IMG/VR virus record: IMGVR_UViG_3300029705_003489
DNA from: an uncultured virus (IMG/VR IMGVR_UViG_3300029705_003489)
Lineage: Duplodnaviria > Heunggongvirae > Uroviricota > Caudoviricetes
Strand: one strand, 5' to 3'
Length of the DNA stretch: 64,000 nt
The notes under the pieces were generated by a model that was not told the origin of the DNA, did no database searches, and saw nothing but the letters and a program-made list of their open reading frames with translations. Both the position numbers and the translations under genes were made by a program. The stretch's first letter is position 1, and each line of letters begins with the position of its first letter. Shown piece by piece: positions 16,396 through 26,543 of the stretch.

Positions 16396-17740
16396 TTATC
16401 AGTCCTTTGCAACGGATTTCATTTTAAGGAATCCCATCAGTTGTCTGATTCTTGATATGGGACTTGGGAAGACCATCATTACACTGACGGCTCTTTGGAA
16501 TCTTCTGTTTGATTATTTTCTTGTGGCGCGGGTGCTGGTGATTGCACCGAAGCGTGTGGCGGAAAATACATGGCCGGCTGAGATTGAGAAGTGGGAGCAT
16601 TTGACAGGACTTCGGTATTCTCTGGTATCCGGCACAAGAAAACAGCGGGAAGATGCTTTGAGTCGAATGGCCGATGTTTATATCATCGGCAGGGACAACG
16701 TTTCATGGCTTGTAGACAGCGGGTGGTTTTCCTTTGATATGGTAATCGTGGATGAATTATCCAGCTTCAAGTCACCAAAGGCACAGCGGTTTAAGGCACT
16801 GAAAAAAGTACGACCGCGTGTGGCAAGGATTGTCGGGCTTACCGGAACACCGGGAAATCTTATGGATTTATGGGCTGAAATCGGTATTCTTGATATGGGG
16901 CAGCGACTTGGAAGGTTCATCGGTGCTTACCGGGAACGATTCTTTGTGCCAGATAAGCGGAATAGGGAGATTATCTTTTCCTACAAACCAAGAGAGGGAG
17001 CAGAGGAAAAAATCTATGACCTGATTTCTGATATTACGATTTCCATGAAAGCAGTGGATTACCTCGATATGCCTGAGTGTATTTACAACCGGGTGGAGGT
17101 TTCCATGTCGAAGGAAGAACAGACACTGTATGAACAGCTTCGTGAGGATATGATAATTCCAATCGGAGAAGGAGAGGATATCGATGCGGTTAATGCTGCG
17201 GCGCTTAGTAACAAACTGCAGCAGATGGCAAACGGTGCGGTGTATGATGAATCTGGCAATGTCCATCACATTCATGACAGAAAACTGGATGCTTTGGAGG
17301 ATTTGATTGAAGCCGCCAATGGCAAACCACTCCTTGTAGCATACTGGTTTAAGCATGACCGGGAAAGAATCATGAATCGTTTTTCGGTAAGGGATATCAA
17401 TACGGCAAAGGATATGAAGGATTGGAATGATGGTAATATTCCAGTGGCACTTATCCATCCGGCATCTGCGGGACACGGACTGAACCTGCAGGCTGGCGGT
17501 TCGACCATTGTGTGGTTTTCGAATATCTGGGCATTGGAACTTTATCAGCAGTTAAATGCGAGACTGTGGAGACAGGGACAGAAACACACGGTGGTAATCG
17601 AGCATTTGGTAACCAAGGGAACTGTGGATGAGGATATTCTGGTTTCTCTTGAAAAGAAGGATGTAACGCAGGAATCAATGATTGTAGCAGTAAAAGCAAG
17701 GATAGGAGGCAAGGCTGATGAGAGCGGAAAGGATGATTAG
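16376..17740 (+). CDS. SNF2-like SF2 helicase
   Basis: DMGLGKT, VDELS, LTGTP, GHGLNLQ, QLNARLWRQGQ. Confidence 0.92.
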   Translation: MRYKAHNYQSFATDFILRNPISCLILDMGLGKTIITLTALWNLLFDYFLVARVLVIAPKRVAENTWPAEIEKWEHLTGLRYSLVSGTRKQREDALSRMADVYIIGRDNVSWLVDSGWFSFDMVIVDELSSFKSPKAQRFKALKKVRPRVARIVGLTGTPGNLMDLWAEIGILDMGQRLGRFIGAYRERFFVPDKRNREIIFSYKPREGAEEKIYDLISDITISMKAVDYLDMPECIYNRVEVSMSKEEQTLYEQLREDMIIPIGEGEDIDAVNAAALSNKLQQMANGAVYDESGNVHHIHDRKLDALEDLIEAANGKPLLVAYWFKHDRERIMNRFSVRDINTAKDMKDWNDGNIPVALIHPASAGHGLNLQAGGSTIVWFSNIWALELYQQLNARLWRQGQKHTVVIEHLVTKGTVDEDILVSLEKKDVTQESMIVAVKARIGGKADESGKDD

Positions 17741-18206
17741 AGAATATGGCACATTGAAAAAAGAACTTTCTGTTCTGGAATTTCAGCTTAAGCAGTTTAA
17801 GGGTGTGGACGAGGATGACATCATCCTCTCCATGCAGCTTGCCCATCCGGAAGGCGGGGACAGGGTACAGACCAGTACTACTTCTGACAAAACTGCATCG
17901 GTGGCAATGAATTATAAAAACATAGCAGAACGGGAAAATGAAGAATGGTATAACCATTTGTGGAGCAGATATCGTTTTGTGAAAGAAGAAATAGAATTCT
18001 TCGAACATAGCGTGACTACATTACATGACAGTCTGCCGGGAATTATTATGGATTTGGTGGAGGGACGTATGACGTGGGAGAGCATGGCAGCCAAATACCA
18101 TGTTAGCACCACCATGATTTCCAAGTATAAAAAAACTGCAATAAAGGAACTGGACTTTCTGTATGAATTGCGGGATCAGCAGACAGAAACATATATATTG
18201 AGTTAG
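17718..18206 (+). CDS. Probable late-gene transcriptional activator (RinA/ArpU-like)
   Basis: RVQTS motif, C-terminal sigma4-like HTH, position at end of the replication module. Confidence 0.65.
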   Translation: MRAERMIREYGTLKKELSVLEFQLKQFKGVDEDDIILSMQLAHPEGGDRVQTSTTSDKTASVAMNYKNIAERENEEWYNHLWSRYRFVKEEIEFFEHSVTTLHDSLPGIIMDLVEGRMTWESMAAKYHVSTTMISKYKKTAIKELDFLYELRDQQTETYILS

Positions 18207-18216
18207 GAGGCATATT

Positions 18217-18588
18217 ATGGCATTTAAGCGTGGAGACATATATTTCGTGGATTTTGGAAATAACAAAAATTCTCATAAGCAGAGTGGAATTCGTCCTGCT
18301 GTGATTGTAAGTAACAATAAGGCAAATGCGAATTCTCCGGTTATAACAGTGGTACCATTGTCGGCACGAGTATGGAAGAAAAAATATCTTCCTACCCATG
18401 TTTTTATTCCGATGAGAAGAGGCTATGGATTAACAAAGCCGAGCATGGCGCTGGCGGAACAGGTGGAAACACTGGACAAGAGCCAGTTTGGAAATAAGAT
18501 AGGTAGCATCTATGATGAAAGGCTTATGGAAAAACTGACATTTGCATTGCAAGTACAGATTGGTGCGGTGGCAAAATACAATAAGTGA
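18217..18588 (+). CDS. PemK/MazF-family toxin
   Basis: KRGDIYFVDF...Q.GIRPAVIVSN...VVPLS...LAEQVETLDK. Confidence 0.9.
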   Translation: MAFKRGDIYFVDFGNNKNSHKQSGIRPAVIVSNNKANANSPVITVVPLSARVWKKKYLPTHVFIPMRRGYGLTKPSMALAEQVETLDKSQFGNKIGSIYDERLMEKLTFALQVQIGAVAKYNK

Positions 18589-20149: not shown

Positions 20150-20602
20150 ATGACAGAGGAACAGGGAATTCAGATAATTAAACTGCGACAGCAGGGACTT
20201 GGTTATAAGCAGATTGCTGCTATGGTTAATGTATCCCGTGACTCTGTCCGTAGTTATTGCAAGCGACGGGGACTCGGTGGCTACCAGTCAGCGGTTAAGA
20301 TAAATATGAAAGAGTTGAAACGTGGAGATGCCTGCAGTTTTTGCGGTGGCCCAATTAAGAAAGCAAAAACCGGAAGACCGAAGCGTTTTTGTTGTGATGA
20401 ATGCAGAATGAAATACTGGAAGGGACACCGGAGTGAAGTAAAGAAAAGTCCAAGTGCGATTTACATCCGGGAGTGTCCATATTGTAAAGAAACCTTTGAG
20501 GCTTATGGTAACAAGACACGGAAGTTCTGCTGCCATGACCATTATATAAAATTCCGCTTTTATAATGCGGATAGCATATGTGAAAGTGGAGGTACACCAT
20601 GA
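20150..20602 (+). CDS. HTH + Zn-finger protein (copy 1)
   Basis: GLGYKQIA HTH; CSFC, FCCDEC, CPYC, FCCHDH. Confidence 0.85.
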   Translation: MTEEQGIQIIKLRQQGLGYKQIAAMVNVSRDSVRSYCKRRGLGGYQSAVKINMKELKRGDACSFCGGPIKKAKTGRPKRFCCDECRMKYWKGHRSEVKKSPSAIYIRECPYCKETFEAYGNKTRKFCCHDHYIKFRFYNADSICESGGTP

Positions 20603-22371
20603 GCAATAATACAACTACAGAAAGAATGCTGACCCTCGGAAGCCTGTTTGATGGCTCCGGGGGTTTTCCTTTAGGTGGAGCGCTTGCAGGCATTACACCG
20701 ATATGGGCATCGGAGATTGAACCGTTCCCGGTAAGGGTAACCACGCTCAGGTTTCCAAGTATGAAACACTATGGTGATATTACTGCACTTAAAGGCAGTG
20801 AATTAGAACCCGTGGATATTATTACATTCGGAAGTCCATGTCAGGATATGTCGGTGGCAGGAAAACGGGACGGTTTGGGAGGCTCACGCTCCAATCTGTT
20901 TTTTGAAGCAATTCGTATCATAAAAGAAATGAGAGGTGCAACCAATGGAGAATATCCAAGATTTATCGTATGGGAAAACGTGCCGGGAGCATTCTCCTCA
21001 AACAAAGGAGATGACTTCCGAGCCGTCCTTGAAGAAATCTGTAAAATCAAAGAAGAACAGGTGTCAATTCCTAAATCTGAAAAATGGGAGTATGCAGGAA
21101 ATATCGTGGGCAATGGTTACTCCATCGCATGGAGACAACTCGATGCTCAATTTTGGGGAGTGCCCCAACGAAGAAAACGCATCTACCTTGTCGCAGATTT
21201 TGCAAGTGAACGTGCCGGAGAAATATTATTTGAGTCCGACGGCTTGTCTGGGTATTCTGCGGAGAGCTTCAAGTCGTGGCAAGCAGCTACCTCCTATGTT
21301 ACAGAGGGCACTGGAGAATCAGGCAAAGAGTGTTTAATGTTTGAAAACCACAGTCAGGACACTAGATACACGGGTCCGCTTGATGTGGCACAGACGGTAA
21401 GTTCCACTTACGGAACGGGAGGAAACAATCAGCCGTTTGTGGTGCAGACACCAAAGACCATGAAAATCCGGTGTGGCTGCGAGGGCGGTGGCAAGGGAGC
21501 ATTAGTGCAGGACGATTTGTCAGCTACCCTTGGATGTAATAATGACCAGACACTGTTTCAGCCGATGGCTTTTGGTATCTGCTCTAAGGATAGTAATGCC
21601 ATGAAGTCGGAAAATCCACACAGCGGATTTTATGAAGCAGAAACTTCCCGATGCTTGGATGCCAATGGAGGTAATCCTTCTTGTAATCAAGGTGGTATGG
21701 CAGTAGTGGCTTTACAAGGTTCCATGATAGGCAGACAGGACGGTAATGGTCCACAGGGGGATGGCATCAATGAAGAAGTATCCTTTACTTTAAACACCGT
21801 GGATAAGCACGCTGTTGTGTATGCGATTGACCGTGAGGCAATCAACTGCGGACAGAGATTTGAACGCACTCCGGGCATTACGGATGATGGGATTAATTCC
21901 ACGTTAAATGCACAGGGACCTGGAGCAGTGGCCGTTCCAACATATTCCTCCAGCAAGGCATCATTTTTTATGAGAGCAGAGGAGGAACTTGCAAATACGC
22001 TGGTGGCTACTGATTATAAGGACCCGCCTATTGTTAATGATGAAGCCGAGGAAGATTATATCGTAAGGCGGCTGACATCAACGGAATGTGCAAGACTGCA
22101 GGGATTTCCGGACTGGTGGTGCGCGGACCTTGGTATGGTAAATCCTACGGATGAGGATGTGGCTTACTGGAAAAATGTATTTGATGTTCATGCCAGAGCA
22201 ATCGGAAAGAATGTAAAAAGCAAAACGGATAATCAGATTCGTAAGTGGCTGATAAATCCACACTCTGATTCTGCGGAATATAAGATGTGGGGAAATGGTG
22301 TGGCACTTCCAAATGTATATTTTGTACTGTCCGGGATTGTGTATCTGGCAGAGTGTGCGAAAGGGGAATAG
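20599..22371 (+). CDS. Phage DNA (cytosine-5) methyltransferase with long multi-repeat variable region
   Basis: SLFDGSGG, GSPCQD, WENVPG, QRRKR, RRLT..ECARLQGFP, YKMWGNGV. Confidence 0.93.
   Translation: MSNNTTTERMLTLGSLFDGSGGFPLGGALAGITPIWASEIEPFPVRVTTLRFPSMKHYGDITALKGSELEPVDIITFGSPCQDMSVAGKRDGLGGSRSNLFFEAIRIIKEMRGATNGEYPRFIVWENVPGAFSSNKGDDFRAVLEEICKIKEEQVSIPKSEKWEYAGNIVGNGYSIAWRQLDAQFWGVPQRRKRIYLVADFASERAGEILFESDGLSGYSAESFKSWQAATSYVTEGTGESGKECLMFENHSQDTRYTGPLDVAQTVSSTYGTGGNNQPFVVQTPKTMKIRCGCEGGGKGALVQDDLSATLGCNNDQTLFQPMAFGICSKDSNAMKSENPHSGFYEAETSRCLDANGGNPSCNQGGMAVVALQGSMIGRQDGNGPQGDGINEEVSFTLNTVDKHAVVYAIDREAINCGQRFERTPGITDDGINSTLNAQGPGAVAVPTYSSSKASFFMRAEEELANTLVATDYKDPPIVNDEAEEDYIVRRLTSTECARLQGFPDWWCADLGMVNPTDEDVAYWKNVFDVHARAIGKNVKSKTDNQIRKWLINPHSDSAEYKMWGNGVALPNVYFVLSGIVYLAECAKGE
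20945..21337 (+). CDS. Nested alternative-frame polypeptide resembling the M.EcoHK31I beta subunit
   Basis: GAGAGGTG RBS 6 nt before ATG 20945; ECP..E..STLSQILQ..VP.KYYLSP.AC.GILRRA..RGK.LP..L. Confidence 0.75.
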   Translation: MENIQDLSYGKTCREHSPQTKEMTSEPSLKKSVKSKKNRCQFLNLKNGSMQEISWAMVTPSHGDNSMLNFGECPNEENASTLSQILQVNVPEKYYLSPTACLGILRRASSRGKQLPPMLQRALENQAKSV

Positions 22372-23721: not shown

Positions 23722-24513
23722 ATGATTATTCGCAGCATGATGGCAGACAGAAAACTGCTGGTTAAGGAACTTGAAAAACGATTGGGTGTACATTCCGAGT
23801 ATAAGGGAGCCCCGGCATTTACTTACAAGGTTGGGGATTACACCATTCGCCGGGACGGACACATTGAGGTTGAGGATGAAAAAGTGAATGTAGAACTTTT
23901 AAGGGCATTGAATCAAGATGGATTTGTGGATTCTTCTTGGGATACGGATAGGGAACGGATTGTGATTACCCTTCCTTATGACGGACATACGGGAGCAACG
24001 CTTACAAATCTGGTTCACATGATTGCCGGAAGGAGCAGGCTGATAAACAAGAGCATCTGCTGCGGAAACGCATTCTATATTGAGGACAGATTCTTGGAGG
24101 CACTACGGGAGAAAGAACCGGAAACGGTGGAGGATTTCCTAAGACTGGTGGAAGAGACGGAAGCCAATTATGCAAATTTGGGATTGACCTTTGAAGCAAA
24201 CGGCATTGCATTTTCCGGATTCCCGGCATTGGAGAATACGGAAAAAATAAAAGCATTCATGGATTTGGCAAGCCTTATGAATAAAATGAGCATGACTCAA
24301 AAGAGGGTGCAGGCAACAACGGTGGAAACGGACAATGAAAAGTACGCTTTCCGCGTTTGGCTGATAAGGCTTGGAATGAATGGGGTGGAATACAAAACTA
24401 CAAGAAAACTGCTGCTAGAGCATTTGAGTGGAAATTCTGCATTCCGGACGGAAGAACAGGCAGAAACCTTCAGAGAAAACCATAGAGTAAAGAGACCGGA
24501 GGTGGAAGCGTAA
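23722..24513 (+). CDS. Conserved phage protein sharing the amidoligase C-terminal motif
   Basis: NEKYAFRVWLIRLGM.G.EYK..R also seen as NPKYAMRTWLLRLGFIG.EFK..R in the 25047 ORF. Confidence 0.75.
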   Translation: MIIRSMMADRKLLVKELEKRLGVHSEYKGAPAFTYKVGDYTIRRDGHIEVEDEKVNVELLRALNQDGFVDSSWDTDRERIVITLPYDGHTGATLTNLVHMIAGRSRLINKSICCGNAFYIEDRFLEALREKEPETVEDFLRLVEETEANYANLGLTFEANGIAFSGFPALENTEKIKAFMDLASLMNKMSMTQKRVQATTVETDNEKYAFRVWLIRLGMNGVEYKTTRKLLLEHLSGNSAFRTEEQAETFRENHRVKRPEVEA

Positions 24514-24902
24514 TGTTTGGAGTGAGCAGAGAAATCGTGGAAAAATTAAGGAAAGACTATCCGGCAGGCTGCCGGGTAGAACTTCTCCATATGGATGACC
24601 CGTATACAACAATGGTTCCGGGGGAAAGGGGAACGGTACGGTGCGTGGATGACACAGGTACCATTCATGTCAATTGGGACTGCGGTTCTTCCTTGGGAAT
24701 TGTTTACGGAGAGGATTCCTGCAGACGGATTGAAGAAATTTCAATTACCTGTTATGGGCAGACCGAGGTCTGGACTTCAAGGGAAAAAGCAAAAGCATTT
24801 TACCTTAAAGCAATGGCCGGCTCAGAGGGAAGTGAGCATGAGCGGTATTCCAATATTTATATGCAGCTCTGCCTTGGACTTTGTGTGTGCGGTGACGAAT
24901 AA
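24513..24902 (+). CDS. DUF4314 protein with C-terminal extension
   Basis: YPAGCRVELLHMDDPY...GTV..VDD.GTIHVNWD.GSSLG. Confidence 0.85.
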   Translation: MFGVSREIVEKLRKDYPAGCRVELLHMDDPYTTMVPGERGTVRCVDDTGTIHVNWDCGSSLGIVYGEDSCRRIEEISITCYGQTEVWTSREKAKAFYLKAMAGSEGSEHERYSNIYMQLCLGLCVCGDE

Positions 24903-24937
24903 AAAATATTTTTTAGACCATGAGAGACGTCATAATA

Positions 24938-25040
24938 TACACAAATTTCCGTGTGTATATTTGTGTACTAATGGTATTGATAATATCTGCCTTTAGAGCG
25001 AATATGTGTGTACCGAAAGGGAAAACACATTAACGGAGGA
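24938..25040 (+). promoter_or_regulatory. Repeated promoter cassette, copy 2, with upstream inverted repeat
   Basis: TACACAAAT-12-ATTTGTGTA; TTGATA-17-GAATAT; TACCGAAAGGGAAAACA; GGAGG. Confidence 0.75.
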
Positions 25041-25046
25041 GCGACC

Positions 25047-25994
25047 ATGAACGAAAAAATGGCAAAGCAGATTGAGGAAATGAAGAAGCAGACCATCGGA
25101 GTTGAGGTGGAAATGAACAGCATCAGAAGGGATAAGGCAGCAAGGCTTGCCGCTGAATTCTTTGGCACCGGACGGTACGAGAATACCGAAGGCAGAAACG
25201 GCTACTACACCTGGTCAGCATGGGATGAGCAGAACAGGGAATGGAAATTCCAAAGGGATATCAGCATTGCGGGACCGGACATTGAAAAATGCGAAATGGT
25301 AACACCGATTCTTACCTACGCAGACATTGAGAAACTGCAGGAACTGATAAGGATTTTACGAAAAAACGGAGCCAAGAGCGACCCAACTAGAGGATGCGGG
25401 GTTCACATTCACATCGGAGCCAAGGGACATACAGCGCAGAGCCTGAGAAACCTTGCAAACATTATGGCAAGCCACGAACGGCTTTTGGCGGATGCCTTAA
25501 ACCTTGACCGGGGAAGAATGAGCCAGTATTGCAAAATGGTTGACCCACGATTTTTGGAGGAGGTCAACAAAAAGAAACCGAATTCCTTGTCAGCCTTGGC
25601 AGACATTTGGTACAATAGCCATAACGCAAGCATAGGAAGAAACCACCATTACAACGATAGCCGCTACCACATGCTGAACCTGCATGCAACTTTTACCAAA
25701 GGAACGGTGGAATTTAGACTTTTCCAGTTTGAAGCACCGTCGGGAGGAAAGCAGAACGGACTTCATGCAGGGCAGTTAAAAGCCTACATTCAGCTTTGCC
25801 TCGCACTTAGCCAACTGGCAAAGGAAGTACGGTCAGCAAGCGCAAAACCACAGCAGAATGAAAATCCAAAATACGCAATGAGAACTTGGCTCCTCCGGCT
25901 TGGATTCATCGGGGATGAATTCAAAACGGCAAGGGAACTTTATACCAAGCGACTTGCTGGGGATACGGCTTTCAGAAACGGGCGCGTGGCTTGA
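25047..25994 (+). CDS. Amidoligase_2 (COOH-NH2 ligase type 2)
   Basis: IGVEVE, DISI, CEMVTPIL, CGVHIH, RYHMLN, GTVEFR. Confidence 0.9.
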   Translation: MNEKMAKQIEEMKKQTIGVEVEMNSIRRDKAARLAAEFFGTGRYENTEGRNGYYTWSAWDEQNREWKFQRDISIAGPDIEKCEMVTPILTYADIEKLQELIRILRKNGAKSDPTRGCGVHIHIGAKGHTAQSLRNLANIMASHERLLADALNLDRGRMSQYCKMVDPRFLEEVNKKKPNSLSALADIWYNSHNASIGRNHHYNDSRYHMLNLHATFTKGTVEFRLFQFEAPSGGKQNGLHAGQLKAYIQLCLALSQLAKEVRSASAKPQQNENPKYAMRTWLLRLGFIGDEFKTARELYTKRLAGDTAFRNGRVA

Positions 25995-26078
25995 AGGGAA
26001 TAGCCACAGGCCTGCCTTGGACCGCTTAGGCGGTCTTAAGGTGGTAGGAGGGTAGACTCCGGAAAGGATGGAAAATAT

Positions 26079-26543
26079 ATGAAACGATATTATTTAGCGT
26101 ATGGCAGTAACTTGAATGTGGAGCAGATGCAATTTCGCTGCCCAACGGCAAGGGTAATCGGTACTGCGGTAATCGAGGATTACGAACTTTTATTCAAAGG
26201 CAGTAAGTCCGGTTCATACCTTACCATCGAGCCGAAGGCGGGTGCAATGGTTCCGGTTGGAGTTTGGGAAGTAACAGAACGGGATGAGGCAGCACTTGAC
26301 CGATACGAAGGATATCCAAGCTTTTATTACAAGAAAGACCTTAAGATAAAGGTAACGGGAATCAAGACCGGACGGGAAAGCATAAAGGATACATTTGTGT
26401 ATATCATGCATGAGGATAGAGAATTTGGAATACCAACGCAAAGTTATGTGGAAACCTGCGTGGCAGGATATAAAGCCTTTGGATTTGATGAGGAATTTCT
26501 TATGGAAGCTCTGAAAAAGAGCAAGGAGGCACTTGCAAAATGA
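26079..26543 (+). CDS. Gamma-glutamylcyclotransferase (GGCT/AIG2-like)
   Basis: YLAYGSNLN..QM..RCP, LDRYEGYP. Confidence 0.92.
   Translation: MKRYYLAYGSNLNVEQMQFRCPTARVIGTAVIEDYELLFKGSKSGSYLTIEPKAGAMVPVGVWEVTERDEAALDRYEGYPSFYYKKDLKIKVTGIKTGRESIKDTFVYIMHEDREFGIPTQSYVETCVAGYKAFGFDEEFLMEALKKSKEALAK

Follow-up and report, generated by a model that had tools for sequence, protein, structure and literature searches.

The 64,000-nucleotide (nt) stretch of DNA analyzed here (hereafter the window), from an uncultured Caudoviricetes virus (IMG/VR record IMGVR_UViG_3300029705_003489), carries a C5-cytosine DNA methyltransferase gene that wholly encloses a second, shorter open reading frame (ORF) in its +1 frame (Table 1). 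Long same-strand overlapping genes under well-evidenced selection are rare in bacteria and their viruses, and two-frame methyltransferases are usually cited as a lone curiosity, M.EcoHK31I, whose source paper is said to be that of Lee, Kam and Shaw from 1995. The main frame of the window gene keeps the canonical order of C5 motifs, namely I (FDGSGG), IV, VI, VIII, IX and X (GNG). Its match to PF00145 falls in three stretches, and in a near-identical copy (G001) positions ~161-247 of the PF00145 hidden Markov model (HMM) are unmatched; one IMG/VR locus (L001) has 100% identity to the gene. The nested ORF runs from an ATG at 20945 to a TAA at 21335-21337, with (20945-20599) mod 3 = 1, and overlies main-frame motifs VI (ENV) to VIII (QRRKR) plus 45-50 residues beyond; a GTG-start variant at 20936 gives 133 amino acids (aa). 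A preliminary description of this DNA had proposed a 130-codon ORF with its own ribosome-binding site, spanning motifs VI-VIII and leaving motif IX in the main frame. Its coordinates, frame and GAGAGGTG-6 nt-ATG spacing are all confirmed, the translation bears out the span and the exact peptide that it quoted, and motif IX does read in the main frame.

Table 1. Features of the methyltransferase gene and of the frame nested in it
Feature	Position	Strand	Detail
C5-cytosine DNA methyltransferase, main frame	20599..22371	+	590 aa; PF00145 E 4.3e-43; TIGR00675 E 1.3e-39
Main-frame motif IV	20836-20844		PCQ, from translation
Main-frame motif VI	20974-20982		ENV, from translation
Main-frame motif VIII	21166-21180		QRRKR, from translation
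Main-frame motif IX	22066-22110		RRLTSTECARLQGFP, from translation
Main-frame motif X	22291-22311		GNGVALP, from translation
+1-frame TGA overlapping Shine-Dalgarno-like site	20930..20938	+	TGA 20930-20932; GAGAGGTG 20931-20938; 6 nt before ATG
Nested +1-frame gene, beta-like small protein	20945..21337	+	130 codons plus stop
Nested codons 1-77	20945..21175	+	Ser/Lys/Thr-rich leader over main-frame motifs VI-VIII; predicted disordered
Nested codons 78-130	21176..21334	+	conserved helical module TLSQIL...PEKYYLS...ACLGILRRA..RGK.LP..L..AL
Main-frame linker, ~residues 203-247	21205..21339	+	SDGLSGYSAESFKSWQ...GESGKECL; same bases as nested module, frame 0

The start region of the nested ORF is compact. 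The +1-frame TGA shuts the frame four codons upstream of the nested ATG, and the sequence around this ATG, GAAATGAG, which yields both the +1 TGA and a GAGG(T/G)G Shine-Dalgarno-like site, is invariant in 65/65 distinct homologues. The Arg codon at the start site is AGR in all 65 sequences, and the Asn/Asp codon that creates the nested ATG has T as its third base in every one of them, whereas the third positions that neighbor the start site vary freely. Such invariance of the ATG, of AGR and of GAAATGAG amid varying neighbors points to independent initiation and not to a frameshift. The search for promoters inside the methyltransferase gene gave 6 sites versus 4.4 +/- 1.8 in shuffled sequence, that is, no excess.

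Conservation and selection on the nested frame

We collected 80 IMG/VR loci with main-frame identity of 44-100% to the window gene, of which a motif filter retained 43 with a complete ORF. Far from being frequently interrupted in homologues, the +1 frame is open over 133-142 codons in 43/43 of these loci; the first ATG always occupies the same site, four codons past the upstream stop, and the nested stop lies at the same aligned position throughout. The +2 frame around the same point is open over 23-152 codons, mostly ~40. In a wider survey of 156 IMG/VR loci drawn from two sets that share some contigs, the +1 motif is present in 151, which comprise 118 loci where the +1 ORF accompanies a complete main frame, 31 where the ORF (~133 codons where covered) is found and the motif VIII pattern was missed, and 2 where the main frame is broken or cut off downstream. 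Five loci lack the +1 motif, and the four that were checked (L043, L052, L084 and L119) do not cover the region. The +1 frame is fused to the C-terminal half in none of the 156 loci. The nested frame occurs in 111 distinct copies across these loci, and 102 copies measure 127-144 codons; as for the nine shorter copies, all those checked begin at the end of a locus.

Selection was estimated from the 80 loci and the window, keeping ORFs of 450 aa or more that contain ENV and RRL[TV] and removing identical sequences, which left 65 distinct full-length genes. Differences were classed by their effect in both frames, in the style of OLGenie, over 400 random pairs of the 429 at 2-30% divergence. Divergence that is synonymous in the main frame and nonsynonymous in the +1 frame amounts to 1.03, 1.39 and 1.51 in three control regions, to 0.63 in nested codons 1-80 and to 0.153 in codons 81-130. 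This is the suppressed synonymous variation that the preliminary description had proposed to look for across homologues: main-frame synonymous divergence drops from 1.0-1.5 to 0.15 over the last 50 nested codons. The reverse class, nonsynonymous in the main frame and synonymous in the +1 frame, reaches 0.44 in codons 81-130 versus 0.14-0.17 in the controls. The resulting +1 ratios of nonsynonymous to synonymous divergence (dN/dS) are 0.22 [0.14-0.33] for nested codons 81-130 and 0.56 [0.42-0.74] for codons 1-80, with bootstrap intervals that resample codons over phylogenetically related pairs and hence understate the uncertainty; the baseline of the method, given by the three control regions, is 0.69-0.82. 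Main-frame dN/dS over nested codons 81-130 is 0.63 versus 0.08-0.09 in the controls, and ratios for the +2 frame are 1.0-1.8 throughout, with no coding signal. Across the last 50 codons, then, it is the +1 reading that is better conserved, and the main frame passes through as a tolerant linker. Judged by these comparisons among homologues, the nested frame is a real, strongly conserved coding gene.

One could instead suppose that the frame encodes no functional protein and is a relic of an ancestor resembling M.EcoHK31I, or a by-product of a constraint on the nucleic acid such as RNA structure. Main-frame amino acids alone leave the region open in ~2% of synonymous redraws: the region was stop-free in 384/20000 of them, and a +1 run of at least 134 codons arose anywhere in the gene in 786/20000. 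We find this supposition hardly credible in view of the codon-phased pattern in the +1 frame, where third positions vary (0.44) and first and second positions are held (0.10-0.15), of the conserved start and stop, and of a protein pattern kept across different nucleotide modules (in the P1-like loci described below) and between phages of Bacillota and Proteobacteria. Together, the open frame in 43/43 loci, the start context in 65/65 sequences and the coding-type substitutions amount to far more than chance.

Another route to the same peptide would be a +1 ribosomal frameshift after motif VIII, without a start of its own, yielding a truncated product made of motifs I-VIII plus the module. The confinement of the strong constraint to the last 50 codons agrees with such a product, as do database proteins of ~240 aa that join the N-terminus of the methyltransferase to the module. 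In those proteins, however, the change of frame falls at varying places upstream of motif VIII, in the manner of random indels. Every locus, moreover, keeps the +1 frame open from a conserved ATG preceded by a Shine-Dalgarno-like site, for which a frameshift product would have no need. Inspection by eye, with no formal search, showed no conserved shift-prone site accompanied by a frame-0 stop or pause. A frameshift is thus, in our judgment, quite improbable.

Several database proteins were considered as designed variants of this arrangement and rejected. These are proteins of 400-620 aa that begin with the nested domain (P0005, P0020 and P0118) and the proteins of ~240 aa (P0273, P0297 and P0314), both taken as split or fused forms. 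Their switch points differ, one carries an integrase and another a DNA polymerase, and fusion occurs in 0/151 motif-bearing IMG/VR loci, so the longer proteins are frame-switch accidents or rearrangements. Locus L069, which the motif scan had put forward as a fused form, proved to have a main frame broken further downstream and an intact nested ORF. P0118 and P0018 do not represent a non-overlapping version either, since in the related locus L161 the domain once more arises from motifs VI-VIII read in +1. L161 (2808-4874) is itself a circularly permuted, frameshifted relative that starts at MKHLGDIT, after motif II, and has motifs I-II (MASLFDGIGGFPL...IRFP) at its C-terminus after motif X; P0018 and P0118 are permuted likewise. 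P0298 and P0301 are in-frame joins of an integrase and of a family A DNA polymerase, each running into the nested ORF two residues ahead of its Met; this suggests rearrangement junctions at the conserved start site, or chimeric assemblies.

Relatives of the nested protein

M.EcoHK31I (E. coli HK31, YGGCCR) is described in excerpts of PMC2836561 as consisting of an alpha chain with motifs I-VIII, X and the target-recognition domain, and of a beta chain with motif IX that is encoded wholly in another frame of alpha. These excerpts bear out what the preliminary description had stated of a heterodimer whose alternative-frame beta supplies motif IX. We traced the alpha/beta locus via a primer in the supplement of the same article (PMC2836561), whose primer tables spell parts of beta. 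The primer matched 31/31 nt inside an annotated 'DNA cytosine methyltransferase' in 80/5426 complete E. coli genomes. In NZ_CP024886.1 (E. coli AR_0017, locus L267), a 309-aa gene with the alpha-primer start faces a convergent 'NotI family' endonuclease, and a 176-aa +1 ORF inside it (L267 2324-2854) matches the beta primers at its start and end. The record annotates alpha and leaves the 176-codon beta ORF unannotated. The beta sequence used below is that of this locus, identical or near-identical to M.EcoHK31I.

The nested family aligns with beta over most of its length (nested 5-130 to beta 10-116, hhalign 98.8%, E 1.2e-16), and BLASTP gives a match as well (E 7e-10, 38% over 60 aa), so that the resemblance to the N-terminal part of beta, which the preliminary description had proposed, now rests on alignment. 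Over the 150 nt that follow motif VIII, the +1 readings of the window and of the EcoHK31I-type locus share 17/41 identical residues (E 2e-9), whereas the main-frame readings align only through ...LFE (17 residues, E 2e-4). Residues 117-176 of beta carry motif IX (VRRMLPSEYERLQGFPENWT) and have no counterpart in the nested protein; a motif IX-like pattern is likewise absent from its short homologues (0/85 and 0/119). The nested ORF ends before the motif IX part of beta, and motif IX lies in the main frame, which upholds the earlier claim that the nested peptide is not a motif IX donor.

Relatives of the nested protein are numerous: an exhaustive HMMER search returned 3354 cluster representatives at E<=1e-3, of which 1065 pass E<=1e-10, and a word-index search gave 469 related proteins of 71-228 aa, all unnamed or 'hypothetical'. 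Matches in the ESM Atlas are 'hypothetical protein' clusters only, NCBIfam has no match to the nested peptide, and PHROGs has a single weak one, to phrog_16143 'DNA methyltransferase' (E 1.2e-4). Among the cases examined, the nested protein always lies inside C5 methyltransferase genes and is never free-standing. Three variants (P0076, P0107 and P0120) have an internally duplicated GE.P...LSQIL segment.

A tblastn search of 50,697 phage records with the nested peptide matched 191, 44 of them over at least 80% of the peptide, and the hosts of the matching phages range from Bacillota to Vibrio, Mycobacterium and Escherichia. The frame was computed for eight nested cases and is +1 in 8/8: the window, the EcoHK31I-type beta, P1, MM1 ORF14, Javan618, phiJH1301-2, a Latilactobacillus phage and Lactobacillus phage Nyseid. 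The dmt gene of phage P1 contains a 162-codon +1 ORF (AF234172.1 66630-67118; L081 2219-2707) ending in ...LLSQVLEQTSIPQRYFLSSKACAGILRR..K.LPPLLQMAL. In P1-like loci this ORF is open in 79/80, over 163-166 codons, and ends in one of three different tail modules that all have RRAE.R..LP..L and that track the variable region of the methyltransferase. Streptococcus phage MM1 has a 141-aa nested +1 ORF, ORF14, inside its methyltransferase ORF13, ending in ...SLSDILEEEVDERYFLS...; NC_003050 labels ORF14 'DNA methylation', and in DQ113772.1 (MM1 1998) the two ORFs are entered as 'C5 methyltransferase alpha subunit' and 'beta subunit', a naming known here from annotation alone. The nested alpha/beta layout is thus already recognized in MM1 annotation, for a different methyltransferase subfamily. 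In the full-text literature searched, phage methyltransferases with a nested beta-like gene that lacks motif IX are neither described nor tested. The C-terminal module of the nested ORF from a Streptococcus phage also matches a 'hypothetical protein' of an archaeal virus, Methanobacterium virus Drs3 (H140, MH674343.1 8455-8598; 46% over 48 aa, E 1e-6).

Homologues examined other than E. coli Dcm are all nested themselves. In Dcm, VTLAQLLDPMVEAKYILTP... follows motif VIII immediately and in frame, and it is here, at Dcm 283-339, that the nested profile aligns, with an E of 2.6e-3 for Dcm alone, 1.1e-3 with 94 Dcm homologues and 7.5e-4 once beta, P1, MM1 and two Streptococcus phage ORFs are added. 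Against its own main-frame family the nested profile finds nothing (E 0.53). In dcm, stops divide the +1 frame into runs of 76, 58, 1, 17 and 15 codons. The weak in-frame match to Dcm would mean that an old enzyme segment moved out of frame, as opposed to de novo overprinting.

A candidate partner chain and its place among known methyltransferases

We favor, as somewhat probable, the view that the nested protein is a small trans-acting partner chain of the phage methyltransferase. The nested gene would be translated from its own Shine-Dalgarno site and ATG within the methyltransferase mRNA, giving a disordered leader of ~77 residues, its sequence presumably dictated in large part by motifs VI-VIII, followed by a folded helical module of ~50 residues. 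AlphaFold2 models built with 77 homologues agree with such a division: residues 1-80 have block-mean predicted local distance difference test (pLDDT) values of 46-56, as for a disordered N-terminus, and residues 91-130 reach 90-97, with helices at 78-85, 98-111 and 117-128. As a homologue of the N-terminal two-thirds of beta, the part that holds alpha, the nested protein may bind the methyltransferase in trans. Progressive N-terminal deletions of beta weaken the alpha-beta association, with dissociation constants (Kd) of 2.4 (delta-41), 5.3 (delta-46) and 7.1 uM (delta-50), and abolish activity in vitro, and protection in vivo drops from delta-37 on, according to excerpts of PMC2836561 that cite its ref. 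17. Combined with the homology, these deletion data make the part of beta that matches the nested protein the part that binds alpha. The nested module would most likely supply the segment that Dcm-like single-chain enzymes carry in frame right after motif VIII; in the main-frame protein a poorly conserved linker would replace this segment, because the same bases are read in another frame. Together with the deletion data, the comparison with Dcm suggests, short of proof, that the module is a regular part of the enzyme moved to the +1 frame and supplied in trans.

Several points weigh against a partner chain. Conservation of main-frame motifs VI-VIII by itself imposes part of the likeness between the leader and beta. 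Foldseek comparison of the predicted nested fold with the PDB gave nothing at E<=0.001, Pfam gave no match to the nested peptide at E<=1 or E<=10, and sequence searches of the PDB with the peptide, a 77-sequence profile and MM1 ORF14 found no methyltransferase. The match to Dcm is weak (hhalign probability 12-25%, BLASTP E 0.009). Chance alone would give such an open frame in this one sequence with a probability of about 2-4%. Motif IX is in cis here, so the motif IX role that the introduction of PMC2836561 ascribes to beta does not apply, and the main protein might be active alone. The sequence comparisons show that the nested frame is coding, conserved, homologous to beta and devoid of motif IX; from them we infer independent translation, binding to the methyltransferase and a need for the small chain in activity.

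The genomic setting also enters into this question. The genome is of siphophage type, with genes upstream of the methyltransferase in the order DNA polymerase, primase-helicase, helicase, regulator, MazF-like protein, HNH and helix-turn-helix/zinc (HTH/Zn) protein, and, from the C5 methyltransferase on, a ParB-N6 methyltransferase, amidoligase and gamma-glutamyl cyclotransferase genes, terminase, portal and protease. The nearby HNH endonuclease is of the phage packaging type, and PHROGs found no restriction enzyme among the neighbors of the methyltransferase, which is on this ground an orphan phage enzyme. At 17718-18588, a regulator-like ORF (phrog_36) is followed by a MazF-like growth-inhibitor ORF (phrog_1936, E 8e-35) upstream of the HNH and methyltransferase genes, and in phage Nyseid a MazF-like gene likewise adjoins the methyltransferase. 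Two amidoligase-like ORFs (phrog_2443) and one gamma-glutamyl cyclotransferase-like ORF (phrog_2520) lie at 23722-26543, between the methyltransferases and the terminase. The stop of the HTH/Zn protein gene overlaps the C5 start (ATGA, 20599-20602), and the listed GTG start of the ParB-N6 methyltransferase at 22287 places the first 85 nt of that ORF (22287-22371) within the 3' end of the C5 gene; its true start may be later.

An orphan methyltransferase in an anti-restriction context, with no endonuclease nearby, would also suit a nested protein that is real and has no structural part in the enzyme. It could regulate the methyltransferase, in timing, specificity or inhibition, or act on another target, for example host restriction or defense, its gene simply riding in one whose expression is suitably timed. 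The main frame has all ten motifs, IX among them, so that nothing catalytic is obviously missing, and the module is a small helical hairpin without a fold match. We nevertheless consider a non-structural role rather unlikely, given the homology to the very part of EcoHK31I beta whose deletion weakens alpha binding (in the account excerpted above), the invariable occurrence of the nested ORF, among the cases examined, within C5 methyltransferase genes, and the positional match to the post-motif VIII segment of Dcm.

A partner chain in the window invites a broader and more tentative view, possible in our eyes yet short of probable: that a large phage and mobile-element clade of C5 methyltransferases, including the window gene and P1 Dmt, consists of obligate two-chain enzymes whose canonical fold is written in interleaved frames. 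Methylation would then require the nested chain, which might also determine the target recognized. Frame 0 would be used for motifs I-VIII, +1 for the post-VIII segment and frame 0 again thereafter, with EcoHK31I adding one more switch to +1, for motif IX. If so, an unannotated gene has gone unnoticed behind every cloning or annotation of such enzymes, all of which depended on it. A nested gene that is beta-like and lacks motif IX is kept in every examined relative of a common gut-phage methyltransferase; it is unannotated in most phages, including P1, and is missed by routine annotation and gene finders. Should the small chain be needed for activity or specificity, it must be included in methylome prediction, heterologous expression and engineering, and codon optimization would destroy the nested gene. 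These enzymes would then offer a natural series of a segment moved to another frame and kept in trans, running from a single chain to a detached segment and on to a detached segment plus motif IX.

Split C5 methyltransferases are also known from M.AquI-type enzymes, made of two polypeptides divided in the variable region, with ORFs placed one after the other, sharing a short overlap, and not one inside the other. Dcm, unlike the window enzyme, carries the post-VIII segment in its main frame and has a +1 frame full of stops, and the similarity of that segment to the nested module is weak. The N-terminal C5 domain of P1 Dmt, a bifunctional methyltransferase, contains the same +1 ORF as the window gene, unannotated in the P1 record; it differs in a longer nested leader of unrelated sequence and in a host gene fused to a Dam-like domain. 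In MM1, too, the C5 methyltransferase is an orphan whose main frame has all the motifs, including IX, and whose nested +1 ORF ends in an LS.IL...(K/R)Y(Y/F)LS segment. Unlike in the window, however, the MM1 enzyme belongs to a different, shorter subfamily (385 aa), its nested start falls at main codon 51, and ORF14 lacks the RRA..RGK.LP..L..AL helices. The 'distinct split architecture' announced in the preliminary description is accordingly distinct relative to M.EcoHK31I and not unprecedented, MM1 being annotated with the same layout.

A close parallel is M.EcoHK31I. Both loci have a small +1 ORF in a C5 gene that starts upstream of motif VI and ends past motif VIII, and in both a TLSQ(I/V)L...RA..RG..LP module comes directly after the overlap with motif VIII; the small chain starts at main-frame codon 104 in the EcoHK31I-type locus versus 116 in the window. 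Beta, with its 176 aa, contains motif IX, which alpha lacks, whereas the nested ORF of the window has 130 codons and leaves motif IX to the main frame. Where EcoHK31I faces a convergent endonuclease, the window gene is an orphan in a phage replication and packaging region. The comparison suggests that EcoHK31I has both the post-VIII segment and motif IX in the +1 frame, and the window the segment alone.

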